A DNA stretch of 44,118 nt from an uncultured Planctomycetaceae bacterium (GCA_964514515.1 CAZERK010000001.1:1-44118); one strand, 5' to 3'; counted from the first letter of the stretch, positions 3,740-43,129 are shown. Numbers and translations are program-made. Notes: generated by a model not told the origin, from the letters alone.

Positions 3740-3765
3740 GCGGACTCCTTTGATCCTCCAGACGT

Positions 3766-13295: not shown

Positions 13296-13397
13296 ACTCG
13301 ATCTCCTTGCCTCTGGATTTGCGATCCTGTCCTACGAACACCTTGCAAAAATCACACCGTCGGGCGCGGCAGCGCGGGCCGCCGGCGGCCGAGTCAC

Positions 13398-13419
13398 CCC
13401 GCCGCGTGCGCGCGGCGGG
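13398..13419 (-). promoter_or_regulatory. Perfect 9-bp GC hairpin between tssC and hcp
   Basis: CCCGCCGCG (13398-13406), loop TGCG, CGCGGCGGG (13411-13419). It starts 7 nt downstream of the tssC stop on the transcript and has no U-tract. Confidence 0.5.
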
Positions 13420-13425
13420 CCGGGT

Positions 13426-14907: not shown

Positions 14908-14966
14908 GCGTAAGTCTCCCTGAGTAGTTCGTAACTCGACTGGTCATGCCTCGCTGCGAGCGGGCG

Positions 14967-26508: not shown

Positions 26509-26510
26509 AG

Positions 26511-27921: not shown

Positions 27922-30900
27922 CTAGCGCGGCAGCACGCGCAGGACCGGACGGACTCCCGTCAGCTCGTCACCAAAACGAGCGTCACGAGCCTGCAACACG
28001 AGGGGGTTGCTCAGCCATTTCCACATTTCGGACGAATTTAGCGGCTTCTTGGGCGGTGGCGGCAGGATTGTCTCCTGCTCCCGAATCTTGCGCGTCACGC
28101 CGCCGCACGCGAGCGTCGCATCGGTACCCGCGCCGGTACACCACTCGCGCAGGCCGCCGAAGAGGTCGGCCGGTGCATTCGCCCCCCAGCGCAGCGCCGC
28201 CAACACCCACTCGTCAACGGTCGGCACGACTCGACCGAGTTGCGTCGCCGCCGCCGTCGCCTCCGCGAAAGCGCCGGATACGGATACTTCCTTCTCATCT
28301 ACGTAGTAGAGCGTCCACGGACGCTCCGGTGCGGCGGCCGTCTCCGTCAGGTGCGCAAGCGTCGCAGGCGGTGCGGCTTGGTCCGCCACGCTCTTCCACA
28401 ACCCGTCCTGAGGCGGAATCGACACGAGACGCAGACGGTTGCCCTGGCCGTCACGCAAGTTCGTCGGATAGCCGGAGACGGGATCGCGGTCGCTCTCTGC
28501 CGCGTAACCGCGCGTCGCCAGCGCCGCCTGCTGTTCGTCCCACGGCGGCGGCAGCAGCGTCGCCGACTTGAGCAGCGCGGTCGCATCGGCGTCATCGGGA
28601 AGGTTCGTCAGCAACGGCGTGACTTCGGCCAGACGCGGACGCCAGTCCGCCACCGCCTCGCCCCGCAGAGTCTTGTCTACGTCGCCACGCAGCACCTGCA
28701 CCACGGTCTTCAGCGACGCGCGAGCCGCATCCGCCAATTTCGCCAGCGCCGTCGCGTTGTCGGGCGACGGCCCCCAGCGCTCGCCACTGTGCTCCATGGT
28801 CAGGTCCTGGGCTACGGATTCGGCACCCGAGCGCAGGTTCACGCGGAGGGAGAAAGTCACGCGCTCGTCGCCGGCCGAACGTACGTTGGCGTACATCGCC
28901 GAGCCGGGAACCATCAGGTTGGCGACCACCGTCGAGGCTTGCGCCGCCAAGGGGTCTCCGCTCGGGCTCAACTCACGCAGCAGGTTCGCGTTGTCGGCTT
29001 TGGCACCGAAGCGCTCCGGCGCGGCCCCGATGTAGGCGGCGAATTGCTGAGTCCAATCGACCGTCTTCACTGGAGGCGGCTCGGGCGGAGGTTCCGGCTT
29101 GTCCGGCTCCTGCACGGCGACGGGCTCTGGCGGTGTCGGCGCCGTCGCAGTGGGTGGCGCAGAGTCGGCGGTGGTAGCGACGGGCGGGTTCACCGGCGGT
29201 GCGGGCTGCGGAGGCGGCGTGCCTCCACGCAGCGCGAAGAACAGGATCGCGGCCACTGCGGCGACCGCGGCAACACCTCCGCCAATGACGAACCCACGCC
29301 TGCTGCCCGCGGGACGCGGTTTCGCGGCCGCAGCTTTCTCTGTGGGCCGTTCTTCGGGCGTCGCGGCAGCCGGCTTCGGCGCCCGGACGGGCTTGGGCGG
29401 CGGCGGTGCGACCGGGGGCGGCGCGGCAGCCGACACGGCCGGCGCGCTGCCTGCAGCCGCTCCGAACTTCTGCTCCCACCCCGCGGGAAGCTCGTACACC
29501 AGCTTCGCGGGACTCCAGACCGCTCTGAGGACGAACGCCTCGCCGCTCTTGGGTTTGATATCGAAGCCAATCTCGGCGAGCGCGACCTTGCCCTGACGAG
29601 GAACCGTCACTTTTGCAGCGGATGGTGCGGCCTTGGCGACCGCCTTGATCTGCTCGCCCGCCGCTTCGCGCCAATGCGACTGCAGCTCGACGATGCGCTC
29701 GCGCAGATGCGTCTCGAACTCCGCGAGCGATTCGAGCGTCGCGCGGCCGGCGTCCTCGACGGTAACCGTCGTCGCGAAAATGACTTCGGGCTCGCCGCCG
29801 GCCGGATGCAGCGCGATTGCCACGTCGCCATCGAGCGTCGTCGGCAGTTCCGGCTCGGTGTGAACCGGCGTGAGCCGCACGCGAAGCACGTCCTTGTACG
29901 TCCGGGCTAGTTCGGAGCGGGCCACAAGGTCCTGCACGATGGCCGCGCCGGCCGCCTGCTTGGCCACGTCGGTGGCTTGCGCCACAAACGCCCGGCGATC
30001 GGCCGGCTCCCAGGTCAACGATTCCGGCAGCCACACCAACTCCAGCGGCCCGCGCCCCTCCGCCGCGTCCGGCCCCAGGAGCGCCAGCTCAGCGGTCACG
30101 CGCGGGCCCGGCTTTGCCATCTCCGCACGCACAGTCGCACGGGGGAACATGGTGCCCTGAAGCCACTTCTCGAACGTGCCAAGGCGGGATTTCTGCAGGT
30201 CCGGCAATTGCTCCAGCAGGCCAATCCCGATCTGTGTCGCGAAGGTCTCCTGCTCGCCGCAGAGCTGGACGCCGTCTTCGCGCACGCGGAAATCCAGTTC
30301 GCCGATCAGCGGCGGCGCGTCGAAACGCTCCCCTGCCGGCCGCAGGGCGACCCGCACGCGAGCCCGAGCGTCAGCGTCGATGTCCGGCGGCGCCCAGGTG
30401 ATGAATTCGACGGCCGTTTCGATGGCTTTCGACTGAACCAGCCCGGCCAGCTCGCCCTCCGCCAGCGGCTGGAGTACGCTGTCGGCCGCGACGCGCATGC
30501 TCTCGGTCAGCGCGTCGATGTTGGTGGCGGCGTCGTCGACGAGCCGGGTCCGGCAGATGAGCACGAGCGCGGCAGCCTCGTCTTTGAGCCCGGCGGGCCA
30601 GTGCTGCAGTTGCGGCTCCTGGTCGAGCACGTCCAGGGCCGCGTCCCAGCGCGTCTGCTCGATCAGTTCCTTGGCTTTGGCGACCCATGCCCGCGCCGCG
30701 GCGTGCTGGTCGGCCATCTCGCGACGGAGGCGGTCCTGCTGCTCCTGGTGGGCGGCGTACTCCTGCTCGACGGCCGTCACGGACGCCTGCAGGTCCTCCG
30801 GCCAACTCTCCAGAGGCGGCTTCTGCCCCAGCAGCTTGGCGACGCCGGACCAGTTGCGCGCGGCCGCCGTCTTCTGCAGGATCTTCAGCCACGACTGGGC

Positions 30901-32154
30901 CTTGCGCAGGCCCTGGCTCTGCGCGATCTTCGCCGCCAATGGTTCGAGCGCGGCCAGCACGTCCGGCGGCCAGGCGTCGACTTGCGGCTTTTCGCTGAGG
31001 AGGTTTTGGGCCTTCTCCCATTCGCCGGCGCTGACGGCGTTCTGCAGGCGGCCGAACCACTTGGCCACCGCCTGTAACTCCGCCTCAGCAGCGGCTTTGC
31101 GACCTTCCTCCGCCAGCCCCTCGCGGGCCCGAGTCTCGAGCGTGTGAGCCTGGGCACGCTGCTCGGCGGTCATGATCTCCAGCGGCGGGCGGAGATCGAG
31201 GACGGCATCAAGTTCGGCCCAGACGCGCCCGGCCAGCAGTTGTTCAACCTGGGCGAGCCAGCGCTGCACCTTTACGTTGTTCAGGTCGACAGCCGGCGCG
31301 ACGGCAAGCAAGCGCTGGGAGATCGCCGCGGCCGATGGGCGGTCACCGGGCAGGCGGGCCAGCATGGCCGTGACGAGTTCGAGCCACGCCCGGACCGAAG
31401 AATCGGACGATTGGGTCAGGGCATCCCGACTCGGCGCCGCGGGAATGCCGAACCCCATCATGCGGGCCATGTCGACGACGCGATGCGCCTCGGGCTCGAA
31501 GTACAGATACGGATGCACGTGCTCGGCGAACAGGGCCGCAACCATGCCCGCCGCGACGATGTCCGAGCCGGTCTCAAAGCTGGCGAGGGTTTCCGACCCG
31601 TACTTGTCCGGATCGATGTACGCGCACAGCCGATCGTCGCGGTCCACCACGCTCAGCGGCAGGACCTCCCAAGCCCCGGTGCCGGTGGCGTGCGGCCGAA
31701 CGGCCAGATTGAGGTACGGATCCACACCGAGGGTCTTGCAGACGGCCGGGGCAAAGCCGAAATCCGTCACGCGCGGCAGGCCGTCGACGCCCATCAGAAG
31801 AACGCCTGGGCACAGCCCGCCGTGGACGACCGTCCGCGCACCGCCGCCGCCATGGGCAGCGGCCAGGGCATCCGCCAGCGCCACGAGCAGGCGGACCAAC
31901 TCGGCCGGCTCCATGAGCGGCTTGGACGGATCAAACAGGTCGGCAGCATTCAGGGGCGTGGCCGGCTCGTGGGCGACCGACAACACTCCGTCTTGCTCTT
32001 CGAGTGGCCCGACAAAGCGCAGGATATAGGGTGAATTGGCCGCCAAGCGGTTCTGGGCGTGGACGGCATCCTGGAGCGCGTCCGCCAGGCGCGCCGTACG
32101 CTCGGCGTCGACTGTGGCGGGTGGCAGAATCAGGCGTCGAAATCCGTCAGACAT
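27922..32154 (-). CDS. Single-pass membrane protein (1410 aa): degenerate Ser/Thr-kinase-like (pseudokinase) domain, W-x12-W-x15-WP helical repeats, TM helix, Pro-rich linker, C-terminal FGE-sulfatase-like (TagR-like) domain
   Basis: The ORF track gives 27922..32358. I prefer the ATG at 32152-32154 (MSDGFRRLILPP), because the 68 upstream codons are Pro/Arg-rich; the start is uncertain (weak RBS). Kinase-like blocks: VVHGGLCPGVLL (in place of HRDLKPxN), RVTDFGFA, YIDPDKYG, DIVAAGMVAALF, LPGDRPSAAAISQRL. TM: GFVIGGGVAAVAAVAAILFFAL (29230-29295). C-terminus: YYVDEKEVS...GRVVPTVDEWVLAALRWG...LFGGLREWCTG...LACGG...TGVRPVLRV. Confidence 0.75.
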   Translation of the reverse strand: MSDGFRRLILPPATVDAERTARLADALQDAVHAQNRLAANSPYILRFVGPLEEQDGVLSVAHEPATPLNAADLFDPSKPLMEPAELVRLLVALADALAAAHGGGGARTVVHGGLCPGVLLMGVDGLPRVTDFGFAPAVCKTLGVDPYLNLAVRPHATGTGAWEVLPLSVVDRDDRLCAYIDPDKYGSETLASFETGSDIVAAGMVAALFAEHVHPYLYFEPEAHRVVDMARMMGFGIPAAPSRDALTQSSDSSVRAWLELVTAMLARLPGDRPSAAAISQRLLAVAPAVDLNNVKVQRWLAQVEQLLAGRVWAELDAVLDLRPPLEIMTAEQRAQAHTLETRAREGLAEEGRKAAAEAELQAVAKWFGRLQNAVSAGEWEKAQNLLSEKPQVDAWPPDVLAALEPLAAKIAQSQGLRKAQSWLKILQKTAAARNWSGVAKLLGQKPPLESWPEDLQASVTAVEQEYAAHQEQQDRLRREMADQHAAARAWVAKAKELIEQTRWDAALDVLDQEPQLQHWPAGLKDEAAALVLICRTRLVDDAATNIDALTESMRVAADSVLQPLAEGELAGLVQSKAIETAVEFITWAPPDIDADARARVRVALRPAGERFDAPPLIGELDFRVREDGVQLCGEQETFATQIGIGLLEQLPDLQKSRLGTFEKWLQGTMFPRATVRAEMAKPGPRVTAELALLGPDAAEGRGPLELVWLPESLTWEPADRRAFVAQATDVAKQAAGAAIVQDLVARSELARTYKDVLRVRLTPVHTEPELPTTLDGDVAIALHPAGGEPEVIFATTVTVEDAGRATLESLAEFETHLRERIVELQSHWREAAGEQIKAVAKAAPSAAKVTVPRQGKVALAEIGFDIKPKSGEAFVLRAVWSPAKLVYELPAGWEQKFGAAAGSAPAVSAAAPPPVAPPPPKPVRAPKPAAATPEERPTEKAAAAKPRPAGSRRGFVIGGGVAAVAAVAAILFFALRGGTPPPQPAPPVNPPVATTADSAPPTATAPTPPEPVAVQEPDKPEPPPEPPPVKTVDWTQQFAAYIGAAPERFGAKADNANLLRELSPSGDPLAAQASTVVANLMVPGSAMYANVRSAGDERVTFSLRVNLRSGAESVAQDLTMEHSGERWGPSPDNATALAKLADAARASLKTVVQVLRGDVDKTLRGEAVADWRPRLAEVTPLLTNLPDDADATALLKSATLLPPPWDEQQAALATRGYAAESDRDPVSGYPTNLRDGQGNRLRLVSIPPQDGLWKSVADQAAPPATLAHLTETAAAPERPWTLYYVDEKEVSVSGAFAEATAAATQLGRVVPTVDEWVLAALRWGANAPADLFGGLREWCTGAGTDATLACGGVTRKIREQETILPPPPKKPLNSSEMWKWLSNPLVLQARDARFGDELTGVRPVLRVLPR
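27925..28449 (-). other. FGE-sulfatase-like (SUMF1/TagR-like) periplasmic domain at the C-terminus of the 1410-aa protein
   Basis: The order and spacing of its blocks resemble the FGE-sulfatase family: (E)VS, LPT-x-(D/E)EW-x-x-AAR-x-G (here VPTVDEWVLAALRWG), G-x-x-(W)EW (here GGLREWCTG), a GG block, and a terminal G(F/V)R-x-V (here GVRPVLRV). Confidence 0.55.
31300..32037 (-). other. Pseudokinase domain of the 1410-aa protein (H-G-G replaces H-R-D at 31816-31824; DFG retained at 31756-31764)
   Basis: Direct reading of codons: GTC GTC CAC GGC GGG CTG TGC CCA GGC GTT = VVHGGLCPGV. No GxGxxG loop or VAIK-type Lys context is visible in the roughly 45 residues upstream. Confidence 0.65.
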
Positions 32155-32223
32155 CCGTAGCGACACTCGGTTTAGGTTACGGGCGGACCGGCCGGGTCCC
32201 CGCGGCGCGACAGTATCCCGTAA

Positions 32224-32239
32224 TTCGCGCGATCGCGAA
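32224..32239. promoter_or_regulatory. Palindromic element in the divergent T6SS / envelope-module intergenic region (candidate operator)
   Basis: TTCGCG-cgat-CGCGAA (32224-32239), containing the perfect 10-bp palindrome CGCGATCGCG (32228-32237). It lies about 70 nt upstream of the pseudokinase start. Confidence 0.35.
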
Positions 32240-32290
32240 AGGCGGTGCGGCGGAGGCGGCACGGCCGGGGGGGTGGCGGGCAGTTCACCC

Positions 32291-32319
32291 TTGACGCTAG
32301 GCAGGGGGTGGCGTAGCGT
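32291..32319 (+). promoter_or_regulatory. Sigma70-like promoter candidate for the plus-strand envelope module
   Basis: TTGACG (32291-32296), 17-nt spacer, TAGCGT (32314-32319), about 80 nt upstream of the ATG at 32400. Confidence 0.3.
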
Positions 32320-32399
32320 TAACGTGGGAAGGTTGGGCTTCGAGGACCAAACACACATCAGTACGGACCCCGGTAACTTCCCTAGCAGAGGAGTGTGCG

Positions 32400-32603
32400 A
32401 TGGGCCGAATGCGACTCCGATGGCGCTGGGTATATTCGCTGGCAGGTGCGGCGATCCTGCTGCAGACGACGACGTGTACGCTCAGCGACACGCAGACGCA
32501 GCAGCAGTTCGCCAGTCAGTTCCTGCTGCCACAGCTCGCCACCGCGTTTTCCGATCTGGTGTTCTTCGTGCTCGACAACGCGCTGGTACACATCACTACT
32601 TGA
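32400..32603 (+). CDS. Small exported protein (67 aa) with an N-terminal signal/anchor sequence followed by Cys
   Basis: ATG at 32400 with GAGGAG (32388-32393) 6 nt upstream. MGRMRLRWRWVYSLAGAAILLQTTTC, then 41 residues that are Q/T-rich followed by a hydrophobic/amphipathic stretch. GC3-rich codons. The lipobox is poor (T-T-T-C). Confidence 0.5.
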   Translation: MGRMRLRWRWVYSLAGAAILLQTTTCTLSDTQTQQQFASQFLLPQLATAFSDLVFFVLDNALVHITT

Positions 32604-32623
32604 GAGTGACCCCGGAGGACCTG

Positions 32624-32794
32624 ATGCGCAAGTTGCTTCGGATTCGGTGGCTTGTGTGCGGCGCGACTCTGCTCGCGCTCAGCAGTTGCGCCACCAGCCA
32701 GCAGTGGATGGACTTCGGTCGCACCGAGTTGGCCCGCGCCGTCGCGGACATTCTCGGGCGACTCTTCCAGCAGACCATCCAGGGCAGCACGTAG
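32624..32794 (+). CDS. Small lipoprotein (56 aa)
   Basis: ATG at 32624-32626 with GGAGGA (32614-32619). MRKLLRIRWLVCGATLLALSSC has a good lipobox (L-S-S-C). The mature peptide is 34 aa (ATSQQWMDFGRTELARAVADILGRLFQQTIQGST). This is the 3' end of track ORF 32036..32794, whose upstream part crosses the divergent intergenic region. Confidence 0.55.
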   Translation: MRKLLRIRWLVCGATLLALSSCATSQQWMDFGRTELARAVADILGRLFQQTIQGST

Positions 32795-32873
32795 GCACGC
32801 TCGCCCAGTCGACTAACCGAAGGGCGGCGACCTTGGCGAGTCTATCGCCGCGTTGCGCGGCGCGGGACGTGAC

Positions 32874-34850
32874 ATGAGCCCCAGCAAAACACTTCGCTTT
32901 GGCCTGTTCATCGCGATGACGGTCTTCGCCGGCGCCGCGCTCGCCCAAGAGCCCCCACCGCCCGAATCCGGCGCGGCGTTGGTCGAATTGAACCGGGCCA
33001 TTCGCGCCTACACGGCCGAAGACCGCGACACGGCGGCGCAGCTCCTCGAAGGTCTGCTCGCCCGCGAACCCACGGCCGAACTGCGTGTGAGCTGCTACTA
33101 CTACCTCGGCTTGATCGGTCTGGAGCGCGGCTTGGGCCATGCGGCCGCCGCCCAGATCGCCCGCACGCAGGAGAATCCGGAGCAGGCGACGGCGGAAGCC
33201 GGGCTCGCCCGTACGGAATTCGAGGCGGCACAAAAGCATTTCGAGGCGGTCGTGCAGCTCGCCGACCCGACCGCGGAAATCGTGTCCGCGGCGCTGATGC
33301 TGGGCATCTCCCAGCTCGCCAGCGACTTCCCGGAGGAAGCGTTGTCCGCCCGCAGCCTGTCAGAGCGCGCCGCCCAGACGCTGGCCCGCTACACCGGCGA
33401 AACGGACTACGGCGCGAAGGACCGTTACGGCTTTTTCTATCTCGCCGTGGCACGCTACCGCCTGGCCGACGACTACCGCGATCAGGCCAGTCGCCAGAAA
33501 GAGTACAAGGCGATGCTGGAGGGCGCGCAGGAAGCGCTCGATCGCGCCCAGACGTTGGCAGACGAAGACCTCGCGCTCGGCAAACTGACGCCCGTCGGCC
33601 TCGAGGCGTTCCGCACGGTCGTGGCCTACTACGAGGGGCTGCTGGCGATCGTGCGCAGCGACCATCCGGGGGCACGCAAGCTCTTCAGTGACGTCGCCAG
33701 CCGCGCCGAGGGCACGGACCTCGCCCGCAACGCCAGCGCCATCGTCAACCGCCTCGATGAAGTCGAAGCAACGAACCCGCCGCGCATCCAGTTGCCGGTG
33801 CCGGCGCCCATCGGGCCTTGGGAGTTCGACGCCCGCCTGCGCATCGGCAATGGCTACGACTCCAACGTCGTGCTGCTGGGCAAGGACACGACTCTACCGC
33901 GGAGCTATCGGCGGCAGGACGACTACTTCGCCGGCATTCACGCGGACTTCAATCTCAGCCGCTACATCCCGAAGTCGGAAGCCCCCTGGGTCGGCGAGAG
34001 CCTGACGGTCGGCATGGGCGGCGGCGTCAGCGCGACGTGGCAGCCGAACGTGACGCAGTTCGACGTCAACCGCTACCCGGGCCGCGCGTACGTGAACTGG
34101 CAGCCGATCCGCGACCTGTACTTCGGTCTGCAATACGAGTACTCGTACACGCAACTCGGACACGAACCGTACATCTCCAGCCAGCGGCTGTCGCCCGTCC
34201 TGTCGAAGATCTGGCGCACCAAGAGCACCAGCGGCACCGAGCTCGAGGCGGGGCGCACGGACGTGTACTACACGCACGACGAGCGCAACTATATGGATCG
34301 CCTAAGCGACGTCCGGCTGAACCGCGACGGCGTATACCAGGCGATCGGCGTGCAGCACACGTTCAACCTGTGGCGCAGCGAAGAACTGGCGTACATGCGG
34401 CCGTACTTCGATGCGCACGCCCGCGAGCGGACGCTATTCGGCAACGACTGGCTGAGCTTCACGCTGGGCTACGAGTACCGCGACGAGCAGACGGTCGGCA
34501 CGGAGTTCGACCTGTGCGGGCACGCCATGACGTGGGGGCTGAACGTGCCGCTGCCGTACCGGCTGGCGTTCCAGGCGCGCGGTGAGTTCTCGTGGGCGGA
34601 CTACCAGGCGGCGAGCCTGTTCGATTTCAGCCGCCAGGAACGCGCCGACTTTCTGCAGCGCTACGATCTGAGTGTGGTGTACTGGCTGATTCGCCGCGGC
34701 GAGGACGCGAACCTCCGCACGCTGGACGTCCGCTTGCGGACCGGCGTGGAATTCACGTTCCAGAACTCGAACATCTGGAACCGCCTCGGCGAGGACATCT
34801 ACGAATACGACCGGGCGATCTACGGCGTAACGCTGGAAGTGGACTTCTAG
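32874..34850 (+). CDS. Outer-membrane protein: signal peptide, roughly 300-aa TPR-like helical domain, C-terminal beta-barrel ending in Phe
   Basis: ATG at 32874 (the track start, TTG 32853, is also possible). MSPSKTLRFGLFIAMTVFAGAALA-QE is a signal peptide. The helical Ala/Leu/Glu-rich N-half has Y/L-spaced repeats. From PWEFDARLRIGNGYDSNVVLL onward there are alternating-hydrophobicity strands rich in Y/W/G/N. The terminal YGVTLEVDF is a typical OMP C-terminal signature. Confidence 0.75.
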   Translation: MSPSKTLRFGLFIAMTVFAGAALAQEPPPPESGAALVELNRAIRAYTAEDRDTAAQLLEGLLAREPTAELRVSCYYYLGLIGLERGLGHAAAAQIARTQENPEQATAEAGLARTEFEAAQKHFEAVVQLADPTAEIVSAALMLGISQLASDFPEEALSARSLSERAAQTLARYTGETDYGAKDRYGFFYLAVARYRLADDYRDQASRQKEYKAMLEGAQEALDRAQTLADEDLALGKLTPVGLEAFRTVVAYYEGLLAIVRSDHPGARKLFSDVASRAEGTDLARNASAIVNRLDEVEATNPPRIQLPVPAPIGPWEFDARLRIGNGYDSNVVLLGKDTTLPRSYRRQDDYFAGIHADFNLSRYIPKSEAPWVGESLTVGMGGGVSATWQPNVTQFDVNRYPGRAYVNWQPIRDLYFGLQYEYSYTQLGHEPYISSQRLSPVLSKIWRTKSTSGTELEAGRTDVYYTHDERNYMDRLSDVRLNRDGVYQAIGVQHTFNLWRSEELAYMRPYFDAHARERTLFGNDWLSFTLGYEYRDEQTVGTEFDLCGHAMTWGLNVPLPYRLAFQARGEFSWADYQAASLFDFSRQERADFLQRYDLSVVYWLIRRGEDANLRTLDVRLRTGVEFTFQNSNIWNRLGEDIYEYDRAIYGVTLEVDF

Positions 34851-34908
34851 CCGCCGCGCGGGCACCGGGGCGCTGCGCACGAGCAGGCGGTGCCGTCAGG
34901 AGCGGAGC

Positions 34909-35982
34909 ATGAACACGCGACAATCCTTGCGAACGGCGCTGGTGACCGGCATCTTGCTGGCCGGCGCGGGGGCCGCGGTCGCCCAGGAACTGCTCTCCGT
35001 GACCGGAGTCTCGCGCCGCGGAGCGGCTTTGTTCGAACCGGAAAGCGGCGAGGCCGTTCTGCTGTTGCCCGGCCGCGCTATCGCTCCGGGGTCGATCAAA
35101 GTCGAGGCGGATGCCCAACTCATGCTCTTCGAGCCGGCGGGAACGGTACTGGTGGCCATCGGCCCGGCTCAATTGGCAATCGCACGCGACGAGATCGGCG
35201 GCGGGGTCCAGATCGAACTCAAGCGCGGCCGCGTGGCCGTCGCAACGGACGACGCCGGGCGTGGCGTGACGCTGTTCGCCCAGTTGACCGATGCGGCCAA
35301 GACCGAAGTAGAACTGACGCCGGCGCCGGGGCACGTGTACGTGCAGCGCAGCGGCGAACGCGTCCGGATCGCGTATGCACCCGAAGGCGAAGGCAGCAGT
35401 CTCGACGTTCGCGTGAACGGCAACCCGGTCAATCTGGCTGCGGGGCAGGCACTGGTGGTCGCAGACGGCGGGCCGCAGCAGGAGGTCTTGGGCGACTGGT
35501 TGGGGCAGGAAGGCTTCACGCAGCCGTGGGGCCGCGAACTCGGCGTCGCCTCGGCGCAGGCCGCCCGGGCCGAGGTCGAGGCCAAGCTCTTCGACAACGT
35601 CATCACCTGGGATCGCTACGCGGGGGCCACGTACGTGGTGCAGCGCCTGCGCGAGCAGCGCTTCAACCTGGAGATTCGCGCCACGGTCCAGGCCGTCACG
35701 ACCGCCAACCGCTCCAGCCAGCGCGGCGGCGAAGTACAGACGGCGCCGTTCCCGGGCGCGAACGCGGTGCCGGTCATTTCGCCGGCAGCCGCCAGCGTGC
35801 AGGACCCGCACAACGTGGGGCAGAACTTGACGGCCATTCAGCTCAACAGCAATGCCGCTCGCCTGCTGGAGGCGACTGGCAGCCGCGGCCTGGGGTTCCA
35901 GGGTCTGCGGCTGTTGTCGGTGCCCGGCGTAACGAGCACAGGCACCCGGACGATCGGGCCAGCCGGTCTGGGTGCGCAGTAG
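34909..35982 (+). CDS. Secreted FecR-domain-like protein (357 aa)
   Basis: Signal peptide MNTRQSLRTALVTGILLAGAGAAVA-QE. The beta-rich pattern GSIKVEADAQLMLFEPAGTVLVAIGPAQLAI...IELKRGRVAV...VTLFAQL...VELTPAPGHVYVQRSGERVRIAY...VRVNGNPVNLAAGQALVV resembles the FecR sensor fold. No cytoplasmic anti-sigma segment or TM helix. Confidence 0.6.
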   Translation: MNTRQSLRTALVTGILLAGAGAAVAQELLSVTGVSRRGAALFEPESGEAVLLLPGRAIAPGSIKVEADAQLMLFEPAGTVLVAIGPAQLAIARDEIGGGVQIELKRGRVAVATDDAGRGVTLFAQLTDAAKTEVELTPAPGHVYVQRSGERVRIAYAPEGEGSSLDVRVNGNPVNLAAGQALVVADGGPQQEVLGDWLGQEGFTQPWGRELGVASAQAARAEVEAKLFDNVITWDRYAGATYVVQRLREQRFNLEIRATVQAVTTANRSSQRGGEVQTAPFPGANAVPVISPAAASVQDPHNVGQNLTAIQLNSNAARLLEATGSRGLGFQGLRLLSVPGVTSTGTRTIGPAGLGAQ

Positions 35983-36138
35983 CGTCCAACGAAATCGATC
36001 GCAGGGTCGCGCCAAACAGGCGCGGCGGTGCGGTCCGCAAGTGAGGATGGTCTGAGGCCGCAAGGGAGTGCGGACCGGCGGGGTTGGTGCACGTGGCTGC
36101 GCCCGCTCTCGGCCGCAATCCGTCGTGGAGGTCTGGTC

Positions 36139-39100
36139 ATGCGTAACCGCGGGAACATCGTGGAACTTCGGCGCCGGGCTCTGCAGGCGCTCGCCTTGGG
36201 CGCGGCACTCTTCGGCGTCACGAGCGCGCTGGGACAGGCGCACCACCTGGCCTTCACGGTCGAGCCGGTGACGAGCACGGCCGGCGTGACGCTGGTCCCG
36301 GAGATCACGATTCAGGACGCGGGCAACCTGACCGTGGCCGGCGACGACCGCCTGATCACGCTGACGCTGCTCAATCCGAACGGCGCGACGCTGGCAGGCA
36401 CCGTCAGCCTGACGACCGTGAACGGCGTCGCGACCTGGACCGGCGTGGAGGCCCTGCACATCAACAAGACGGGCACCGGCTACCAATTGCAGGCGTCGCA
36501 CGACGGGGCGGCCTTCGCCGGCACGGACACGGTCGACAGCGCCCTGTTCAACATCACACCCGATGTGGCCGACCACCTCGCCTTTACGGTGGAGCCGGTC
36601 ACCAGCACGGCCGGCGTCAATCTCGTCCCCGCGGTCACGATTCAGGACCAGTTCAACAACACCGTCACCGGCGACAACCGGACGGTCTCGTTCACCTTGC
36701 TCAATGCGGCCGGCGCGAGCTTGGCGGGCACGACGAGCATGCTGACCTCCAGCGGCGTGGCCACATGGGGCGCCCTGCAGGCCATGCACATTGACAAGAC
36801 CGGCACGGGCTACCAGTTGCGCGTGGCGCATGACGGGGCCGGATTTACCGGCACCGACACGACGGACAGCGCCGCCTTCAACATTACTGCCGACGTCGCC
36901 CACCACCTCGCCTTCTCCGTACAACCCAGCACCAGCACGGCCGGCACGAACCTCGTTCCCGCCGTGACCATCCAGGATCAGTTCAACAACACAGTGACCG
37001 GCGACGACCGCACGATTTCGTTCACCCTGCTCAACGCGGGCGGCGCGACGCTGGCGGGCACGACGTCACTGCTGTCCACCAGCGGCGTGGCCACGTGGAC
37101 CGGCGTGCAGGCGATGCACATCGACAAGACCGGCCTCGCGTACCAGTTGCGCGCCGCCCACGACGGCGGCGCATTCGCCGGCAGCGATACGGTCGACAGC
37201 AGCGCGTTCAACATCACCGCCGGCGCCGCCGACCACTTGTCCATCACGACCATTTCCACTCCGCAGGATGCGGGCGTCGCATTTCCGGTCATCGTCAACG
37301 TGCTGGACTCGCTCAACAATGCGGCCGGCGTGGCGGCACCGACAACGGTGCAGCTCAGTCTGGCAACCGGCACGGGGACGCTGTCAGGCACATTGACGCG
37401 CATCATCGGCGTGGGTGAGACATCGGCATCGTTCGCCGTCAGTTACGACACCGCCGAAGCCGGCGTGAGCATCCTCGCCCAGCGCACGGCCGGCGACGTA
37501 TTGACGCAAGCGACGTCCAACGCGTTCGCCGTGAGCCCGAGTCCACCGGTGGCGCTGAGCATCTCGAACATTGCCGCGCAGACCGCCGGCACCGCCTTCA
37601 ACGTCACCGTGCGATCGGTGGACAGTGTCGGCAACGCGGCCAATGTGTCCGGAAACACGGGCGTGACGCTGTCGCTGAATACGGGCTCGGGAACGCTGGG
37701 CGGCACGGTCAGCGGCACGATTTCGGCCGGAACCAGCAGCGTGACGATCGTCGGCGTGACGTACAACAAGGCCGAAAGCGGCGTCAGCCTCACGGCGACG
37801 CGCACGAGCGGTGACGTGCTCACCGCAGGCAACTCGAATCAGTTCGTGGTCAATGCGGGCACCGCCGTGGGGTTGCTCTTCGTGGCCCAACCGACCAACA
37901 CGGACCCGGCCACGGCCATTCTCGTTTCGGTCGAGATTGTCGATGCCCTGAACAACCGCGTTACGTCGGCCACCGACAACGTGACCATGTCGCTGGTCAA
38001 TCCCGGCGGGTGCGCCGGCGTACTGACGGGCACCACGACCGTCGCGGCAGCCGCGGGCCTGGCGGAGTTCACCGGCGTGGAGAACCTTCGCATCGCGCAG
38101 GTCTGCAGCGGCTATCGTCTGCGGGCGTCGGCCGGCGGGTTGGGGACGGTGGACTCGAACCTGTTCAGTGTGACGGCCGGCACGGATTTAACGGGCGCCA
38201 CGCTGACGCTCACGCCGGCGGGCTCCGCCACGAATCTGTCGGTCACCTACACAATCGCGGGCTCGCAGACCGTCAACGCCTTCACGATCGAGTATGGCCT
38301 GAAGTTCGAGGCGGACGCGGACCCGATCGACACGGTGTTCGGGTCGCAGGTCATCAACGACGCCAGCCTCCGCGCTCCCGGCGTGCACACCGTCGCACTG
38401 GGCGACATTCGCCCGTCGCTCAACGGGCTGGTGCGCGACGGCGATCGCGTGGCGGTCAATCTGGATTCGACGAACGCGGTGGCTGAGTCGGATGAGACCA
38501 ACAACGTCGGCGAAAGCACGCTGACGGTCGACCTGTCGATGGACGCCCTGCTGGCCACCATCGACGGGGCCAGCTCCAACGTGCAGGTCACCTACTTCGT
38601 AAACAGCGTCGCCAACGTCCCGGCCTTCGTCGTCCGCGTCGGTCTGGACAACAACAACGACGGCACGATCGACGACGTGCTGCGCGACGTGCCCTGCGGT
38701 GCCGGCGGCGTCACACCCGGGGCCCACGTACTGCCGATCGACATTGGGGCCGAACTGGCGACGCGCTCGATCGCGACCGGCGCAAACGTCATCTTGCGAG
38801 CGGTACTGGATATCACCGGCACGGTGGTCGAGTCGGACGAGACCAACAACAGCCTCAGCGCGAGCCAGCAATACCGCGTCGACCTCGTGCTCACGCGCAT
38901 CGCGTTCCCCGGCACCGGTCTGGACAACGACTTCGTCGCCACCGTGAACTACTCCGTCGCGGCCAACCAGGTCAGCGAGAACTTCACGATCGGCTTCTAC
39001 GTGTCCGACAACTCCGCCGTCGACAGCGTCGCCGGCGATATTCGCATCGGCGAACTGCAGATCACCGCCGCCGCCGACAAGACGGTCGGCCCGCACTCCA

Positions 39101-40815
39101 AGCAGATCACGCTGCAAGTCGCGTCGGCCGTGTTCAACAGCTTCAACTTCTTCATCAAGGCGCGCATCGACGACCTCGCCACGGTCACCGAGACCGACGA
39201 GACCAACAACATCGCCGCCAGCCCGAACTCCACGGCCGATCCGAACGCCGACGTGGACGGCGACGGGCTGACCCGTGTGCAGGAGGAGGCGGGCTTCACG
39301 ATCCCGGCCGGCGCAGTCACGCGGATTGACACCTTCAGCTCCGCCGAGATTCCGCCCGAGCGCACCCGCACCTTTGACAGCGCCACGGACTCGGACGAGG
39401 ACGGCTTGCGCGACGATGTCGAACGCAACACGAACACCAACCCGGCCGATCCGGATACGGACGGTGACGGGCTGGCGGACGGCACCGAAGACGCCAATCA
39501 GAATGGCGTGGTCGACGCCGGCGAAACCGATCCGCGCAATTGGGACACCGACGGCGACGGACTCAGCGACGCCGAGGAGCGGGCCGGGTTCCTGGTCACG
39601 CGCTTCGCGGCCGGCTCGACGAGCGGGCGCTTCGTGGCCGCCACGGTCGTGCGGGTCTTCACCGACCCCACCATGGCCGACACCGACGGCGACGGCATCA
39701 GCGACTGGGACGAGGTCATGACCTTCGCCCGCTTTGCGGCCGGACTCGCCGACCTGACGCTGAACGCCGGCGGCGACGTCGCGGACGGCACGGTCGTCGG
39801 CACGGGAACCGAGCTCGACGGACTGCGCTGGACCGCACTGTCGGCCGCCCAGCAGGCCAGCGTGCGAGCCCAGTTCGGCGCGGTGTCGAGTATCGGCTTG
39901 CAGACGGCCGCGGCCCGCATCGGCCGGCGCACTTTCGGGCCGGGCATGGCCCTCACGGATCTACCGGCCGGCGACGTACGCCGCACGCTTGGCCTGCGGG
40001 GCAAACCCGTCTGGGGCGTGCGAACGGACCCGACGCTGGCCGACACGGACGAGGATGGTTTGGCCGACCCGGTCGATCCGGCGCCGCAGATCAACCCCGC
40101 CCGTTGGGGCTATGACACGAACGCGGACGGCGCGTTCAACCAGACGGACATCGACGCGATCCGCACGCAAGCTCCTGCGGATCAGCAGGCCACAATCCCC
40201 ACGACGAACGAAGGCTTCCAGCGCCAACTGCTGAACTTCGACCAGGACGGCGACGGCTTCCTCGAGGCACCGGACGCCAACGGCGACGGCTTCCCCGATT
40301 TCACGCGGTGGAACGAGCCCACCATCGAGCAGGCCTTCGGCATCGACTTCAGCAACGACGGCACGCTCACCGACGGTTTCGACGTCGGCGGGCTCAACCA
40401 GGGCGCGTCCGGCCCGTTCGACGATCGCTGCGGCAGCGCTAACGAAGGCCAAGCCCTCTACGGCACCTACCGCATCATCCGCACCGCGGACGGCGGCACC
40501 GAGGGCGACGGCCAGCTCGACACCCTCGACGCAGCCACGCAGCAACTGATGACCACGGACAACTGCCCGACCACCACCAATGCCGACCAGCTCGACTATG
40601 ACGGCGACGGTCTGGGCGACGCGTGCGATGCCGACCTCGACAACGACGGTGTCGCCAACGAACTGGACCCGGTCACGCAACCGCTCGGCGGCCGCTGCAG
40701 CACGCCGAACGCGAAGTATCGGCCGGTCGTGCCGTGCGGGCTGATCCTGATGCCGCTATTCGCGGTCTACGTCCTGATGCTCCATCGCCGCCGCGCCGCG
40801 CGACGAATCGGTTAG
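36139..40815 (+). CDS. Giant surface/adhesin-like protein (about 1558 aa): signal peptide, 6 Ig-like repeats, 3 CARDB-like domains, Asp-rich calcium-binding (thrombospondin type 3-like) repeats, C-terminal Cys-TM-Arg sorting signal
   Basis: ATG at 36139 with GGAGG (36128-36132); the track starts at 36028. Signal peptide ...GVTSALG-QA. Units of about 110 aa: HLAFTVEPVTSTAGVNLVPAVTIQDQFNNTVTGD...GVATW...IDKTGTGYQL...FNIT. Three domains end in E(S/T)DETNN (about 38484, 38830, 39190). Asp-rich repeats: DTDGDGLADGTEDANQNGVVDAGETDPRNWDTDGDGLSDAEE, DTDGDGISDWDE, DTDEDGLADPVDP, DYDGDGLGDACDADLDNDG. Tail: YRPVVPCGLILMPLFAVYVLMLHRRRAARRIG. Confidence 0.9.
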   Translation: MRNRGNIVELRRRALQALALGAALFGVTSALGQAHHLAFTVEPVTSTAGVTLVPEITIQDAGNLTVAGDDRLITLTLLNPNGATLAGTVSLTTVNGVATWTGVEALHINKTGTGYQLQASHDGAAFAGTDTVDSALFNITPDVADHLAFTVEPVTSTAGVNLVPAVTIQDQFNNTVTGDNRTVSFTLLNAAGASLAGTTSMLTSSGVATWGALQAMHIDKTGTGYQLRVAHDGAGFTGTDTTDSAAFNITADVAHHLAFSVQPSTSTAGTNLVPAVTIQDQFNNTVTGDDRTISFTLLNAGGATLAGTTSLLSTSGVATWTGVQAMHIDKTGLAYQLRAAHDGGAFAGSDTVDSSAFNITAGAADHLSITTISTPQDAGVAFPVIVNVLDSLNNAAGVAAPTTVQLSLATGTGTLSGTLTRIIGVGETSASFAVSYDTAEAGVSILAQRTAGDVLTQATSNAFAVSPSPPVALSISNIAAQTAGTAFNVTVRSVDSVGNAANVSGNTGVTLSLNTGSGTLGGTVSGTISAGTSSVTIVGVTYNKAESGVSLTATRTSGDVLTAGNSNQFVVNAGTAVGLLFVAQPTNTDPATAILVSVEIVDALNNRVTSATDNVTMSLVNPGGCAGVLTGTTTVAAAAGLAEFTGVENLRIAQVCSGYRLRASAGGLGTVDSNLFSVTAGTDLTGATLTLTPAGSATNLSVTYTIAGSQTVNAFTIEYGLKFEADADPIDTVFGSQVINDASLRAPGVHTVALGDIRPSLNGLVRDGDRVAVNLDSTNAVAESDETNNVGESTLTVDLSMDALLATIDGASSNVQVTYFVNSVANVPAFVVRVGLDNNNDGTIDDVLRDVPCGAGGVTPGAHVLPIDIGAELATRSIATGANVILRAVLDITGTVVESDETNNSLSASQQYRVDLVLTRIAFPGTGLDNDFVATVNYSVAANQVSENFTIGFYVSDNSAVDSVAGDIRIGELQITAAADKTVGPHSKQITLQVASAVFNSFNFFIKARIDDLATVTETDETNNIAASPNSTADPNADVDGDGLTRVQEEAGFTIPAGAVTRIDTFSSAEIPPERTRTFDSATDSDEDGLRDDVERNTNTNPADPDTDGDGLADGTEDANQNGVVDAGETDPRNWDTDGDGLSDAEERAGFLVTRFAAGSTSGRFVAATVVRVFTDPTMADTDGDGISDWDEVMTFARFAAGLADLTLNAGGDVADGTVVGTGTELDGLRWTALSAAQQASVRAQFGAVSSIGLQTAAARIGRRTFGPGMALTDLPAGDVRRTLGLRGKPVWGVRTDPTLADTDEDGLADPVDPAPQINPARWGYDTNADGAFNQTDIDAIRTQAPADQQATIPTTNEGFQRQLLNFDQDGDGFLEAPDANGDGFPDFTRWNEPTIEQAFGIDFSNDGTLTDGFDVGGLNQGASGPFDDRCGSANEGQALYGTYRIIRTADGGTEGDGQLDTLDAATQQLMTTDNCPTTTNADQLDYDGDGLGDACDADLDNDGVANELDPVTQPLGGRCSTPNAKYRPVVPCGLILMPLFAVYVLMLHRRRAARRIG
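36244..37233 (+). repeat. Three tandem 330-bp (110-codon) highly similar repeats encoding the first Ig-like domains of the adhesin
   Basis: The CAC-CTC/CTG-GCC-TT(C/T) unit starts recur at 36244, 36574 and 36904, and the next (more diverged) unit begins at 37234. The period is exactly 330 nt. Confidence 0.85.
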
Positions 40816-40872
40816 AATGCCGCCACCCCGGCCGTACCGCGCCGCACCGGATCGCGCGCGGACGGACCGGTC

Positions 40873-42786
40873 GTGCCGGTGCCCATGGGAGCGCTCCGAC
40901 CACAGTTCGCTTCGCACACTTGGCTGCTCGTGATCCTGTGCGCGCTCTTCACCACCGGGGTTGCCCACGCGCAGACGCCGTCGTACGCCCGCCCTGAAGA
41001 AGTCGCGAGCCTGGACGCGCTGCTCGTCAACTTGGGCGACGTACAGAATCCGCCGCCGTACAGCCCCGCGGACTACATCGAGCTGAGTCGCCTGCTGTCC
41101 ACGCCGTGCGACCAACTCGAGTGGCTCGCCGTCCAGGCCCGCACACTGCTCAATCAAGCCCCCCGCCGCGCCGACGCCGGGCGCCTCGCCCAGGCCGCCC
41201 TCGCCCGCGGGCAAACGCTGACCCAACGCGGCCTGCTCGACCAATGCGCTGCGCTCGCCGCCCTGACCGAGATCGCCGGGCAATTCGAATCGCTCGAGGG
41301 CGTCACCGATCCGGATGCCCTGCGCGGACGGCTGGAGAAGGCGGCCAACCTCATGGAACTGCCGGCGGCGACGAAGTTCCTGCTCCTCGCGCGCGGAGCC
41401 GGCGCGCGGCAGCTCTTCGGGCGCGGCGCCTCCGAACCGTGGGACGTGCCGCGTCAGATCGTCGATCGCCTGGCGGCCCGCCCTGAACTGCCGCCCTTCG
41501 CCGAATTGCTGGACGCGCAGCAGCGCCTCAGCGCCGCCGCACAGCAGTGGACCAAGACTGCCACCACCGACTTCCCCGACGCAGCCCAGCAGCAACTGGT
41601 CGCGAATTCGTTCCGGATCGCGTCGGCCCTGCTCGATCGCGCGCTGGGCGTGGACGACGTGACCGCCCGCTCGGATCAAACGCTCGCCTATCCCACGGAC
41701 GCGGCCGACTGGACGAAATTGGCTACCGACTGCGCCACGCCCGTCGCCCGTACCTGGGCCGCCCTCGCGCATCTGCTGGCAGGATGTGCTTCGGACGACC
41801 CCGCGAGCAGCGTCAGCGCGGCCCAGACGTTGTGGGCGGATGTGCGCAAGGTCTCGCCGAATACTTGGCCGGCGCTGGACGACGTGACCGCCGGCTGGCT
41901 CGGCCGGTGCGCCGCCGCCGACCGTCAACTCGTGGCACGACAACTCCCCTTGGCACGCAACTATGTCGGCGCCGGGCGCGCGGCACGGGCCCCGCTCGAG
42001 GCCCGCGTCCGCGCACTCGCGAGCGACAGCGGCACCAATCCCGACGAGTTGTTGCGGACCATTCAGCAGGCCAAGGCGGCGGAACTGGGACTGGGCAGTG
42101 TTACGGCCAGCCTGGATGACCTGAAGCGCGAATTCGAGACGCAACTCGTCTACCTGTTTGTGGAAATGTGCGAGCTGCAGCCGGCACAGTCCGGCCAGCC
42201 GTCGAACTATTGCGGCGTGGCCCTGTACCGCACGCGCTACGAAGAGAAGATGGCCGGCGTCGAGTACAAGGACGAATGGGCCACCAAGATCCTGCGGCCG
42301 GCAGGTAGCATGCAGGCCGTCCTCGCCGATGCGCTGGCAGCGCCGGGACCGCCCCTGCGTGAAGGCGGCCAGATTCGCAAGGACGCCCGCATCCTGCTGG
42401 CGCTGGATGGCCCCCCGCCGGTCGAGTGGTTCGACTACGAGAACACGACTCTCATGCAGGCCACCGAGTGGAGTGTCACGCCGAGTTGGGTCGTGTACCT
42501 GCCCAGCGCGGCCGCGCTGAAGTCGAACGAGTGGAACCTCGACGCGGCCCTGCGCGGGTGGTACCGCGCGGCGTTGCGGCGCGGGACCGCCCCACCGACG
42601 GTGAGCGCCCCGCCGCAGACGCTGGCGACAGGTCTGGGGGGCGCCCCGCTGACCCGTACGGACATGCAGCTTTACTCGGTGGGCTTCGCCGGGGCGTCCG
42701 GCGGCAACGCGACGAAAATCGCCGATTTCATGACCACCAAGCGGCGCGGCAAACTGACGGCCCTGGCACTGTGGGTCGACAAGTAG
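40873..42786 (+). CDS. Secreted hypothetical protein (637 aa; Ala/Leu-rich helical, several Cys)
   Basis: GTG at 40873 (alternative ATG at 40885). Signal peptide ...WLLVILCALFTTGVAHA-QT. No family recognised. Same strand as the adhesin gene, 57 nt downstream of it. Followed by a hairpin plus T-tract. Confidence 0.7.
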   Translation: MPVPMGALRPQFASHTWLLVILCALFTTGVAHAQTPSYARPEEVASLDALLVNLGDVQNPPPYSPADYIELSRLLSTPCDQLEWLAVQARTLLNQAPRRADAGRLAQAALARGQTLTQRGLLDQCAALAALTEIAGQFESLEGVTDPDALRGRLEKAANLMELPAATKFLLLARGAGARQLFGRGASEPWDVPRQIVDRLAARPELPPFAELLDAQQRLSAAAQQWTKTATTDFPDAAQQQLVANSFRIASALLDRALGVDDVTARSDQTLAYPTDAADWTKLATDCATPVARTWAALAHLLAGCASDDPASSVSAAQTLWADVRKVSPNTWPALDDVTAGWLGRCAAADRQLVARQLPLARNYVGAGRAARAPLEARVRALASDSGTNPDELLRTIQQAKAAELGLGSVTASLDDLKREFETQLVYLFVEMCELQPAQSGQPSNYCGVALYRTRYEEKMAGVEYKDEWATKILRPAGSMQAVLADALAAPGPPLREGGQIRKDARILLALDGPPPVEWFDYENTTLMQATEWSVTPSWVVYLPSAAALKSNEWNLDAALRGWYRAALRRGTAPPTVSAPPQTLATGLGGAPLTRTDMQLYSVGFAGASGGNATKIADFMTTKRRGKLTALALWVDK

Positions 42787-42789
42787 GCC

Positions 42790-42809
42790 CGGGTCGGACC
42801 CGACTTTTT
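42790..42809 (+). terminator. Candidate intrinsic terminator after the 637-aa gene
   Basis: CGGGT (42790-42794), loop CGG, ACCCG (42798-42802), then AC-TTTTT (42805-42809). It starts 4 nt after the TAG stop. The stem is short (5 bp). Confidence 0.4.
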
Positions 42810-42832
42810 GCCGCCCCGGAGCGGCGAATTCT

Positions 42833-42952: not shown

Positions 42953-43129
42953 ATGGCCGAGGGCACGGTGCCGTGGTTCAATGACACCAAGGGCTTCGGC
43001 TTCATCGAGTCCGATGACGGCCAGGACGCGCTGGTTCAGAACACCGCCATCGTCGGCGAGGGACGCAAGCCCCTGAAGGAAGGCGACCGCGTGCAGCTCG
43101 ACCTCCAATGCAGCGACCAAGGCCCCTAG
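42953..43129 (+). CDS. Short divergent cold-shock-domain protein (58 aa)
   Basis: Below the ORF-track size cut-off. My translation: MAEGTVPWFNDTKGFGFIESDDGQDALVQNTAIVGEGRKPLKEGDRVQLDLQCSDQGP, with TAG at 43127-43129. GTV-x-WFN-x-x-KGFGFI (RNP1) is present. The RNP2 position reads ALVQN instead of VFVHF. GAGG lies 10 nt upstream. Confidence 0.75.
   Translation: MAEGTVPWFNDTKGFGFIESDDGQDALVQNTAIVGEGRKPLKEGDRVQLDLQCSDQGP

Follow-up and report, generated by a model that had tools for sequence, protein, structure and literature searches.

A candidate surface-display module with a Slam-like barrel, a FecR-fold partner and two mini-lipoproteins in a planctomycete genome

The window analyzed here is a 44,118-nucleotide stretch of DNA from an uncultured Planctomycetaceae bacterium (GCA_964514515.1 CAZERK010000001.1:1-44118). 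Between positions 32400 and 42786 it carries six co-oriented genes, whose products are two mini-lipoproteins (mini1 and mini2), a predicted outer-membrane barrel with a helical arm of tetratricopeptide repeats (TPR), a FecR-like protein, a giant adhesin and a secreted helper. These genes are divergent from a neighboring type VI secretion system (T6SS). The first five form a real, conserved unit, and the barrel appears to be remotely related to Slam, the outer-membrane protein of type 11 secretion. The reading favored here, tentatively and with a little less than even confidence, is that the unit is a dedicated Slam-like surface-display module for a lipid- or membrane-anchored giant adhesin, in which the FecR-fold protein and the mini-lipoproteins are lineage-specific accessories. 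That the barrel exports the adhesin is something we infer, and every functional statement made below is drawn from sequence, predicted structure and synteny.

Conservation and layout of the gene cluster

Gene neighborhoods were compared over 23 species-level genome loci and a tblastn synteny table, comprising 22 non-redundant close loci with barrel identities of 41–83% and about 0.6 Mb of sampled DNA. The FecR-like gene is present in all 22 close loci, mini2 in 21 and mini1 in 17 at the tblastn sensitivity used, where truncation of the contig upstream accounts for several of the misses. The giant adhesin is found in every one of the 19 close loci that have downstream DNA. The 637-residue helper is encoded in 10 of the 16 with enough downstream DNA and is therefore accessory. 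Overall, about 20 Planctomycetota genomes share mini1, mini2, the barrel, the FecR-like gene and the adhesin as a syntenic unit, and gene order and content are retained in many genomes as barrel identity falls from 83% to about 30%. Thus, of the six-gene set put forward in the original prediction, five genes stand as a conserved unit and the helper does not belong to its core. Within the unit, the two mini-lipoproteins, the barrel and the FecR-like protein are invariant, and the large protein encoded next to them varies by clade.

Close relatives of these genes all come from metagenome-assembled genomes of the Phycisphaerae/Planctomycetota, save for one contig label. This contig (locus L020, JBBIST010000043.1) was binned as Burkholderiales and carries barrel, FecR-like and adhesin genes at 52–69% identity. 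The label is probably a binning error rather than a sign of horizontal transfer.

Protein-level conservation of all six products in related loci shows that they are encoded by genes and are not chance open reading frames (ORFs) in DNA with a GC content of 67%. The ORF map gives spacers of 20, 58–79, 58, 156 and 57 nucleotides, so that the description of six co-oriented genes with mostly short spacers is borne out. In addition, each product carries an export signal, as had been claimed: read directly from the sequence, the N-termini have the form of signal peptides, with a basic n-region ahead of a hydrophobic core, which is followed by an AxA-type site or, in the mini-lipoproteins, by a Cys. 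Directly 3' of the last stop codon are two terminator-like hairpins (42790–42802 and 42807–42828, plus strand), each followed by a T-rich run, which agrees with the terminator-like element proposed for the end of the cluster. In the region as a whole, 8 terminator-like sites were found where 6.1 are expected, which is not above chance. This operon-like layout, with its short spacers and a terminator only at the end, counts in favor of a display module.

The other end of the cluster faces a gene on the minus strand, and the longest ORF of that gene leaves only 41 nucleotides to mini1. As its homologues align from Met69, the gene probably begins there, which makes 32155–32399 the likely divergent intergenic region, a promoter region of 245 nucleotides between the upstream gene and mini1. 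A scan for the sigma-70 consensus found no site within 32155–32399. The cluster had been said to share its promoter region with a T6SS sensor gene; the 245-nucleotide divergent region is there, and the "sensor" itself is a conserved pseudokinase, which is described below. On the 3' side, a cold-shock-domain protein is encoded at 42953–43129 (plus strand), a gene that is syntenic in L005, L007 and L014.

The barrel and its conserved partners

The barrel gene (32874–34850, plus strand, with an alternative TTG start at 32853) encodes a protein of 658 or 665 residues. This consists of a signal peptide, a helical, TPR-like periplasmic domain (about residues 40–307) and a beta-barrel (about 312–665) that finishes in a terminal Phe. 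The proposed combination of TPR arm and barrel is upheld by an AlphaFold2 model, which was built from a 32-sequence alignment, has a predicted local distance difference test score (pLDDT) of 86 and contains 14 strands between residues 323 and 664. When the whole model was compared to the PDB using Foldseek, the top match was BcsC, in which a TPR arm and a barrel are likewise joined (E 5.8e-9). For the barrel alone, the 14-stranded OmpG and CymA superpose best. The 35 word-indexed homologues include none with a name, and PDB sequence searches were uninformative for the barrel, for the helper and for the FecR-like profile. Barrel families in Pfam and NCBIfam do not match the window protein, its close homologues or the family consensus; Pfam TPR models match members of the family, with a few weak TPR_Slam matches among them.

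The only known function of DUF560 proteins, which comprise an N-terminal TPR domain and a 14-stranded barrel and have been described in Proteobacteria only, is to move cargo across the outer membrane, either lipoproteins or soluble proteins that are encoded next to them (PMC8406197). A link to this family is provided by distant relatives of the window barrel. Here, a search of 1.84 billion representative proteins with the A1 barrel profile returned 383 relatives, and P0215 was found at E 1e-11. Both P0215 (32.8 bits) and P0213 (24.6 bits) pass the gathering cut-off of 22 for PF04575 (SlipAM/DUF560), as does the consensus of their subgroup (25.7 bits). Using hhalign, the window barrel family aligns with 32 distant relatives at E 1.8e-62 and with the five-member P0215/P0213 subgroup at E 3.1e-41, over 507 columns that take in the TPR arm and the whole barrel. 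A homologue search for bona fide DUF560 relatives with the barrel half of P0215 returned nothing. On the strength of the alignment to PF04575-positive relatives and the TPR/14-strand architecture, the window barrel is judged to be a remote and very divergent member of the Slam/type 11 secretion superfamily that lies outside the curated family. The cluster had been proposed as a possible new surface-display pathway. No Pfam barrel model matches the protein directly; the barrel is neither an orphan nor an entirely new fold, however, having remote kin in Slam/DUF560, and the route would therefore be a divergent variant of a known principle and not a categorically new pathway.

The BcsC match raises the question of whether the protein could instead be a porin for synthase-dependent exopolysaccharide export, of the BcsC, PgaA or PelB type, with unrelated neighbors. 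In keeping with this, matches of PF04575 to some PgaA/HmsH proteins are known (PMC8406197). However, PgaA-type barrels have 16 strands (PMC8406197) against the 14 of the model, about 25 loci contain no gene for a synthase, a glycosyltransferase or a cyclic di-GMP receptor, and the conserved partners are all proteins. A polysaccharide porin is scarcely credible in this setting.

Next to the barrel gene, and paired with it in every close locus, is the gene for the FecR-like protein (34909–35982, plus strand; 357 residues). AlphaFold2 predicts a confident beta-sandwich (residues 29–193), a long helix (207–239) and a disordered C-terminal region (240–357). In Foldseek searches, the protein matches the FecR-family periplasmic domain 4m0n (E 2.9e-5) and the cell-surface signaling domain of PupR, 6ovk_R (E 5.4e-4). 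At the sequence level, it does not match the FecR family PF04773 even at E<=10, and the equivalents from L028 and L032 score below threshold. The positional equivalent in L025 does pass, with 27.9 bits against a cut-off of 24, so that the FecR-like assignment made previously is supported by fold in the window protein and by family in its equivalent. A BLASTP comparison of the window protein to protein p325 of L024 was not significant. Beside the most distant barrels, those of L030 and L033, the partners carry a PF04773 (FecR) annotation, and the association of the barrel with a FecR domain therefore predates the Planctomycetota-specific additions.

The FecR-like protein proceeds from its signal peptide directly into the beta domain and contains neither an anti-sigma domain nor a transmembrane helix. 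Similarly, no extracytoplasmic function (ECF) sigma factor or TonB-dependent receptor was found in the loci examined. The C-terminal residues 240–357 are Gly-rich and among the most conserved parts of the protein, with many invariant Gly, Pro and Leu residues and a pLDDT <50 in the model. This combination is typical of a segment that folds only upon binding to a partner.

The two remaining members of the core are very small. The mini1 gene (32400–32603, plus strand; 67 residues) encodes a precursor with a signal peptide and a Cys in an atypical lipobox (LLQTTTC; LLQ-x-G-x-C). Its C-terminus carries the conserved motif SD-x-VFF-x-LDNALV-x-LTT. The peptide is conserved in 19 distinct sequences from related loci and belongs to no Pfam or NCBIfam family. 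The mini2 gene (32624–32794, plus strand; 56 residues) encodes a near-canonical lipobox, LALSSC in the window and LALGGC in relatives, and a mature peptide of approximately 35 residues with the motif QQ-x-x-DF-x-RTE-x-AR. Its sole database match was to LptM (E 0.19), which covers the signal peptide only and was rejected. Both peptides are still recognizable at about 30% barrel identity, in L024, L028 (where mini1 is m53) and L032 (where it is m54). None were found beside the most distant barrels (L030 and L033), and they are absent beside the DUF560-positive distant barrels. Likely roles would be to plug the barrel, to act as a co-factor or to aid in assembly.

The adhesin, its tag and the neighboring T6SS

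The adhesin gene (36139–40815, plus strand, in a frame open from 36028) encodes 1558 residues. Following the signal peptide are immunoglobulin (Ig)-like repeats (residues 40–679), CARDB-like repeats (700–1028), thrombospondin type-3 (TSP3) calcium-binding repeats (1084–1510) and a C-terminal tag. The first three Ig-like repeats (40–370) are approximately 67% identical to one another and are followed by three more (370–679). Pfam assigns TSP_3 and CARDB, and the TSP3 region matches COMP/thrombospondin at E 7.6e-17. NCBIfam matches to the myxobacterial gliding-motility proteins CglD and MtsC were far below the cut-off and due to the TSP3 repeats only, so that membership in that system was rejected.

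None of the classical routes for adhesin export is encoded in the cluster, as had been stated. Pfam and NCBIfam scans of the six products revealed no POTRA/TpsB, autotransporter, type I secretion, type IX secretion or LPXTG feature; more specifically, there was no match to an ATP-binding cassette transporter/membrane fusion protein/TolC set, a ShlB barrel or a type IX secretion C-terminal domain. Indeed, nothing was accepted in these scans apart from TSP3 and CARDB in the adhesin. The absence of another export route within the cluster suggests that the barrel is used for display.

The tag is encoded at 40696–40812 (plus strand) and has three parts: Pro-x-Cys-Gly (with Cys1533), a hydrophobic helix and the Arg cluster HRRRAARRIG. 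All 19 homologues have the same arrangement and the Cys is invariant. An exported protein that ends in this way, in a Cys motif followed by a hydrophobic helix and basic residues, has the layout of Cys-containing sorting signals such as MYXO-CTERM (10.1101/2023.06.07.544157). The NCBIfam CTERM models (TIGR03901 and others) did not match any of nine different tails at E<=10. Thus, the earlier description of a CTERM-sorted adhesin is sustained as regards a conserved tripartite tag; no curated sorting-signal model matches that tag.

Similar Cys tails are present in the distant clusters, on the 219-residue protein of L024 (p219), p517 of L028 and p540 of L032, and within the approximately 0.6 Mb sampled all of them are in or beside clusters of this type. 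Barrel identity to the window is about 30% in L028 and L032, and both have adjacent T6SS genes. In each, a kinase-like gene on the same strand is followed by two mini genes and then by those for the barrel, the FecR-like protein, a giant protein that has a lipobox at its N-terminus and a TSP3 protein of 517–540 residues, the last of which carries the same Cys tail as the window adhesin. The cargo-like protein can therefore be anchored to lipid or membrane in each clade by differing means, as is expected of a translocon for membrane-anchored surface proteins. In sum, and in favor of display, a large, secreted and membrane-anchorable protein is encoded near the barrel in the close loci, L028 and L032, and a large or tailed protein is also found in L033 and L030. 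In L033 it is a 1523-residue Big_13 protein.

Two of the tailed proteins are small. The L024 protein p219 (7188–7847, minus strand), with its Cys-Gly, helix and RRR tail, is encoded two genes upstream. In L030, a 207-residue protein (5144–5767, minus strand) with a PEP-CTERM-like tail (VVPEPDSISLLAMGLLLLRAGARS...) is encoded directly upstream of a DUF560-positive TPR-barrel and FecR pair. This makes a second instance in which a neighbor of this barrel family bears a C-terminal tag.

The proposed display route can be described as follows. All products would be exported by Sec. The 665-residue protein would form a 14-stranded barrel in the outer membrane with its TPR arm in the periplasm, as the structure model predicts. 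Co-conservation points to an obligate partner for it, the secreted FecR-fold protein, and to two further associates, lipoprotein-like peptides of about 35–45 residues; it may be in contact with all three. The cargo would be the neighboring Ig-like/CARDB/TSP3 adhesin, held at first at the inner membrane by its Pro-x-Cys-Gly, helix and Arg tag. By analogy to MYXO-CTERM, this tag may be cleaved and the protein lipidated at the Cys. The barrel would then move the membrane-anchored adhesin to the surface, much as Slam does for surface lipoproteins. Finally, and with lower confidence, contact made by the adhesin might be coupled to use of the T6SS, which is suggested by the neighboring pseudokinase and T6SS genes.

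Several observations weigh against the display reading. At E<=10, PF04575 has no match in the window barrel, in 31 close homologues or in the family consensus. No sorting protease, including the Rce1/CPBP type, is encoded within 10 kb in any locus, which leaves processing of the tag unsupported. The TbpBBD domain, which marks the cargo of the type 11 secretion system (T11SS), was not matched in any cluster product. In L024 and L025, which are the remotest of the clusters that have minis and whose barrels are 27–28% identical to that of the window, there is a secreted, helical protein of about 700 residues and no giant adhesin. The core can therefore exist without the adhesin, which weakens the claim that it serves the adhesin only. 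Lastly, FecR domains are, to our knowledge, known from signaling and not from secretion.

The lack of a curated model for the tail and of a sorting enzyme nearby also favors another account, in which envelope genes that are loosely related are grouped by chance or shared regulation. The tail would be a plain inner-membrane anchor, leaving the adhesin in the periplasm or at the inner membrane. We consider this very unlikely, as gene order and content persist to about 30% barrel identity and a protein with the Cys tail recurs in each type of cluster even though the protein that carries it differs.

The helper, a secreted accessory protein, is encoded last (40873–42786, plus strand; 637 residues). 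It has no Pfam family and gave a weak, TPR-like match in the PDB (E 6.5e-4). A BLASTP comparison to the ~700-residue proteins of L024 and L025 was not significant (E 0.37). The C-terminal RVVVAVDGP...ILPNAAVL of the L024 product (12895–15003, plus strand) recalls RILLALDGP...YLPSAAAL of the helper, a resemblance covered by the same non-significant comparison (E 0.37). A CHAT-like motif in that L024 protein was seen by eye only and could not be supported.

Facing the cluster across the divergent promoter region is the gene for a transmembrane pseudokinase of about 1410 residues (27922–32154, minus strand), which was recognized by alignment to StkP and by its HGG motif. It comprises an N-terminal kinase-like domain, helical repeats with a recurring W-P motif, a single transmembrane helix and an extracytoplasmic C-terminal domain. 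In the alignment, its catalytic loop reads HGGLCPGVLL where StkP has HRDLKPQNIL, and DFG is kept. Homologues from 17 loci share the HGG motif, which is lacking altogether in the two that are most distant. As HGG replaces HRD and is conserved, the protein is a conserved pseudokinase or a very atypical kinase.

Of the close loci, 14 have 10 kb of upstream DNA, and in 12 of these the kinase-like gene adjoins the cluster, compared to eight for T6SS genes. The pseudokinase is thus the more tightly linked of the two and is probably part of the system. Two close loci, L002 and L021, have neither within 10 kb, and in L028 and L032 the kinase-like gene is co-oriented and directly upstream of the minis. 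T6SS genes are also adjacent in three far clusters (L025, L028 and L032; 27–30% barrel identity), so that the proposed association with the T6SS is confirmed as one that, in terms of adjacency, is frequent and not obligatory.

The window T6SS cluster itself spans 3766–27689 on the minus strand. Pfam identifies VgrG, ClpV, TssG, TssF, Hcp, TssC, TssB, TssA, TssM, TssL and TssK, and the others are unassigned. TssM is unusually long (1592 residues), Pfam recognized no TssJ lipoprotein among the window T6SS genes, and no FHA, phosphatase or PP2C partner was detected in the cluster. Conserved genes without a Pfam family are found in the T6SS region at 1736–3997, 17286–18278, 25828–26754 and 26511–27689, and the product of the last is coiled-coil-like.

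The frequent adjacency and the missing TssJ could mean that the barrel, the minis and the FecR-like protein are envelope accessories of the T6SS, which replace TssJ or anchor the long TssM in the outer membrane. This is highly improbable. A T6SS gene is missing from the nearest 10 kb in six of the 14 informative close loci, the distant barrel and FecR pairs of L030 and L033 are found in unrelated contexts, the cluster is a separate and divergent transcription unit, and the minis are unlike TssJ in size, which is approximately 150–180 residues.

A serious rival to surface display, possible although on balance unlikely, is trans-envelope signaling. Here, the barrel and the FecR-fold protein would sense an event at the surface or in the envelope, such as the adhesin engaging another cell, and relay it to the pseudokinase, which would scaffold or trigger the T6SS; such a role may coexist with display. 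Precedents are FecA-FecR and the TagQRST-PpkA control, by threonine phosphorylation, of the Pseudomonas aeruginosa H1-T6SS. In support, the FecR fold is confirmed, and the solved domains of the FecR family (4m0n, 6ovk) come from the periplasmic portion of anti-sigma regulators, which bind transducers in the outer membrane. Secreted FecR-domain proteins encoded beside CHASE2 sensor kinases have been described (PMC5192318). Further support comes from the pseudokinase being the most constant neighbor, from T6SS adjacency at 27–30% barrel identity and from the adhesin-free mini, barrel and FecR-like core of L024 and L025. On the other side, the HGGLCPG loop leaves the kinase-like domain without the catalytic Asp, Lys and Asn across 17 homologous loci, which makes a classical phosphorelay unlikely. 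In addition, the T6SS cluster has no detectable FHA or phosphatase partner, L002 and L021 have the cluster with neither kinase nor T6SS within 10 kb, and the FecR-like protein is devoid of an anti-sigma or transmembrane part.

Returning to surface display, its fullest form joins the two ideas in a Planctomycetota-specific apparatus: a Slam-like barrel, a FecR-fold adaptor and the minis would secrete and anchor giant adhesins that bear a new Cys-type sorting tag, Pro-x-Cys-Gly-CTERM, would supply their missing passage through the outer membrane and be wired by the pseudokinase to aim or trigger the T6SS at contact. This we regard as distinctly unlikely. On the barrel assignment made here, the Slam/T11SS superfamily would reach beyond Proteobacteria, with unexpected FecR-fold and mini-lipoprotein partners. 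How C-terminally tagged proteins cross the outer membrane is largely unknown, and a dedicated barrel encoded beside such cargo is a directly testable candidate route; MYXO-CTERM proteins reportedly use the type II secretion system. T6SS biology in this phylum is essentially unexplored, and the recurrent presence of a pseudokinase and a T6SS beside the cluster suggests a way to study how contact-dependent firing of the T6SS is controlled.

Comparison with known systems

One signaling parallel is TagQRST-PpkA, as both have a T6SS next to genes for envelope proteins (an outer-membrane lipoprotein and a periplasmic protein) and for a kinase-like transmembrane protein. In contrast, no sequence relationship to it was detected, the window protein has HGG in place of HRD and no FHA/PP2C partner was found. 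With FecR/PupR (PF04773), residues 29–193 of the window protein share their fold, and the two have in common a genetic pairing with an outer-membrane barrel. They differ in that the window protein is secreted without a cytoplasmic anti-sigma domain or transmembrane helix and has a conserved, Gly-rich C-terminal extension, and no ECF sigma factor or TonB-dependent transducer is encoded near the window cluster.

BcsC, PgaA, PelB and AlgK-AlgE resemble the barrel protein in the joining of a TPR arm to an outer-membrane barrel; the window barrel differs in having 14 strands, no polysaccharide synthase genes and protein neighbors. Like the adhesin, proteins of the MYXO-CTERM class terminate in a signature motif that contains an invariant Cys, followed by a hydrophobic helix and then by clustered Arg residues. 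However, the window motif is Pro-x-Cys-Gly, no curated model matches it and no CPBP protease is encoded in the loci. Moreover, in the DNA sampled the tail is found on one protein per cluster and not on many unrelated proteins.

The parallel favored here is Slam/T11SS (PF04575), which includes Neisseria Slam1/2, Xenorhabdus NilB and HrpB. These proteins also have an N-terminal TPR domain and a 14-stranded barrel (PMC8406197), the window family has profile-level homology to proteins that pass PF04575, and the barrel gene adjoins one for a large, secreted, lipid- or membrane-anchored protein, this last being a functional parallel only. The differences are considerable. There is no direct PF04575 match for the window barrel or its family consensus, and T11SS has been described in Proteobacteria only (PMC8406197; 10.1101/2024.09.26.615229), whereas the window is from the Planctomycetota. 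The TPR arm is about 270 residues long compared to about 140, the cargo is 3–5 times larger and without TbpBBD, and the genomic link is to a pseudokinase and a T6SS instead of TonB-dependent receptors. The obligate FecR-fold partner and the two minis have no mention in PMC8406197 or 10.1101/2024.09.26.615229, and the latter, a survey of T11SS cargo, makes no mention of FecR, anti-sigma, T6SS, kinase or Planctomycetes either. Similarly, the literature searched contained no paper that names DUF560 together with FecR. What is new here is a barrel assigned to the Slam superfamily in a new phylum, together with new partners, a new type of cargo and a new genomic association.

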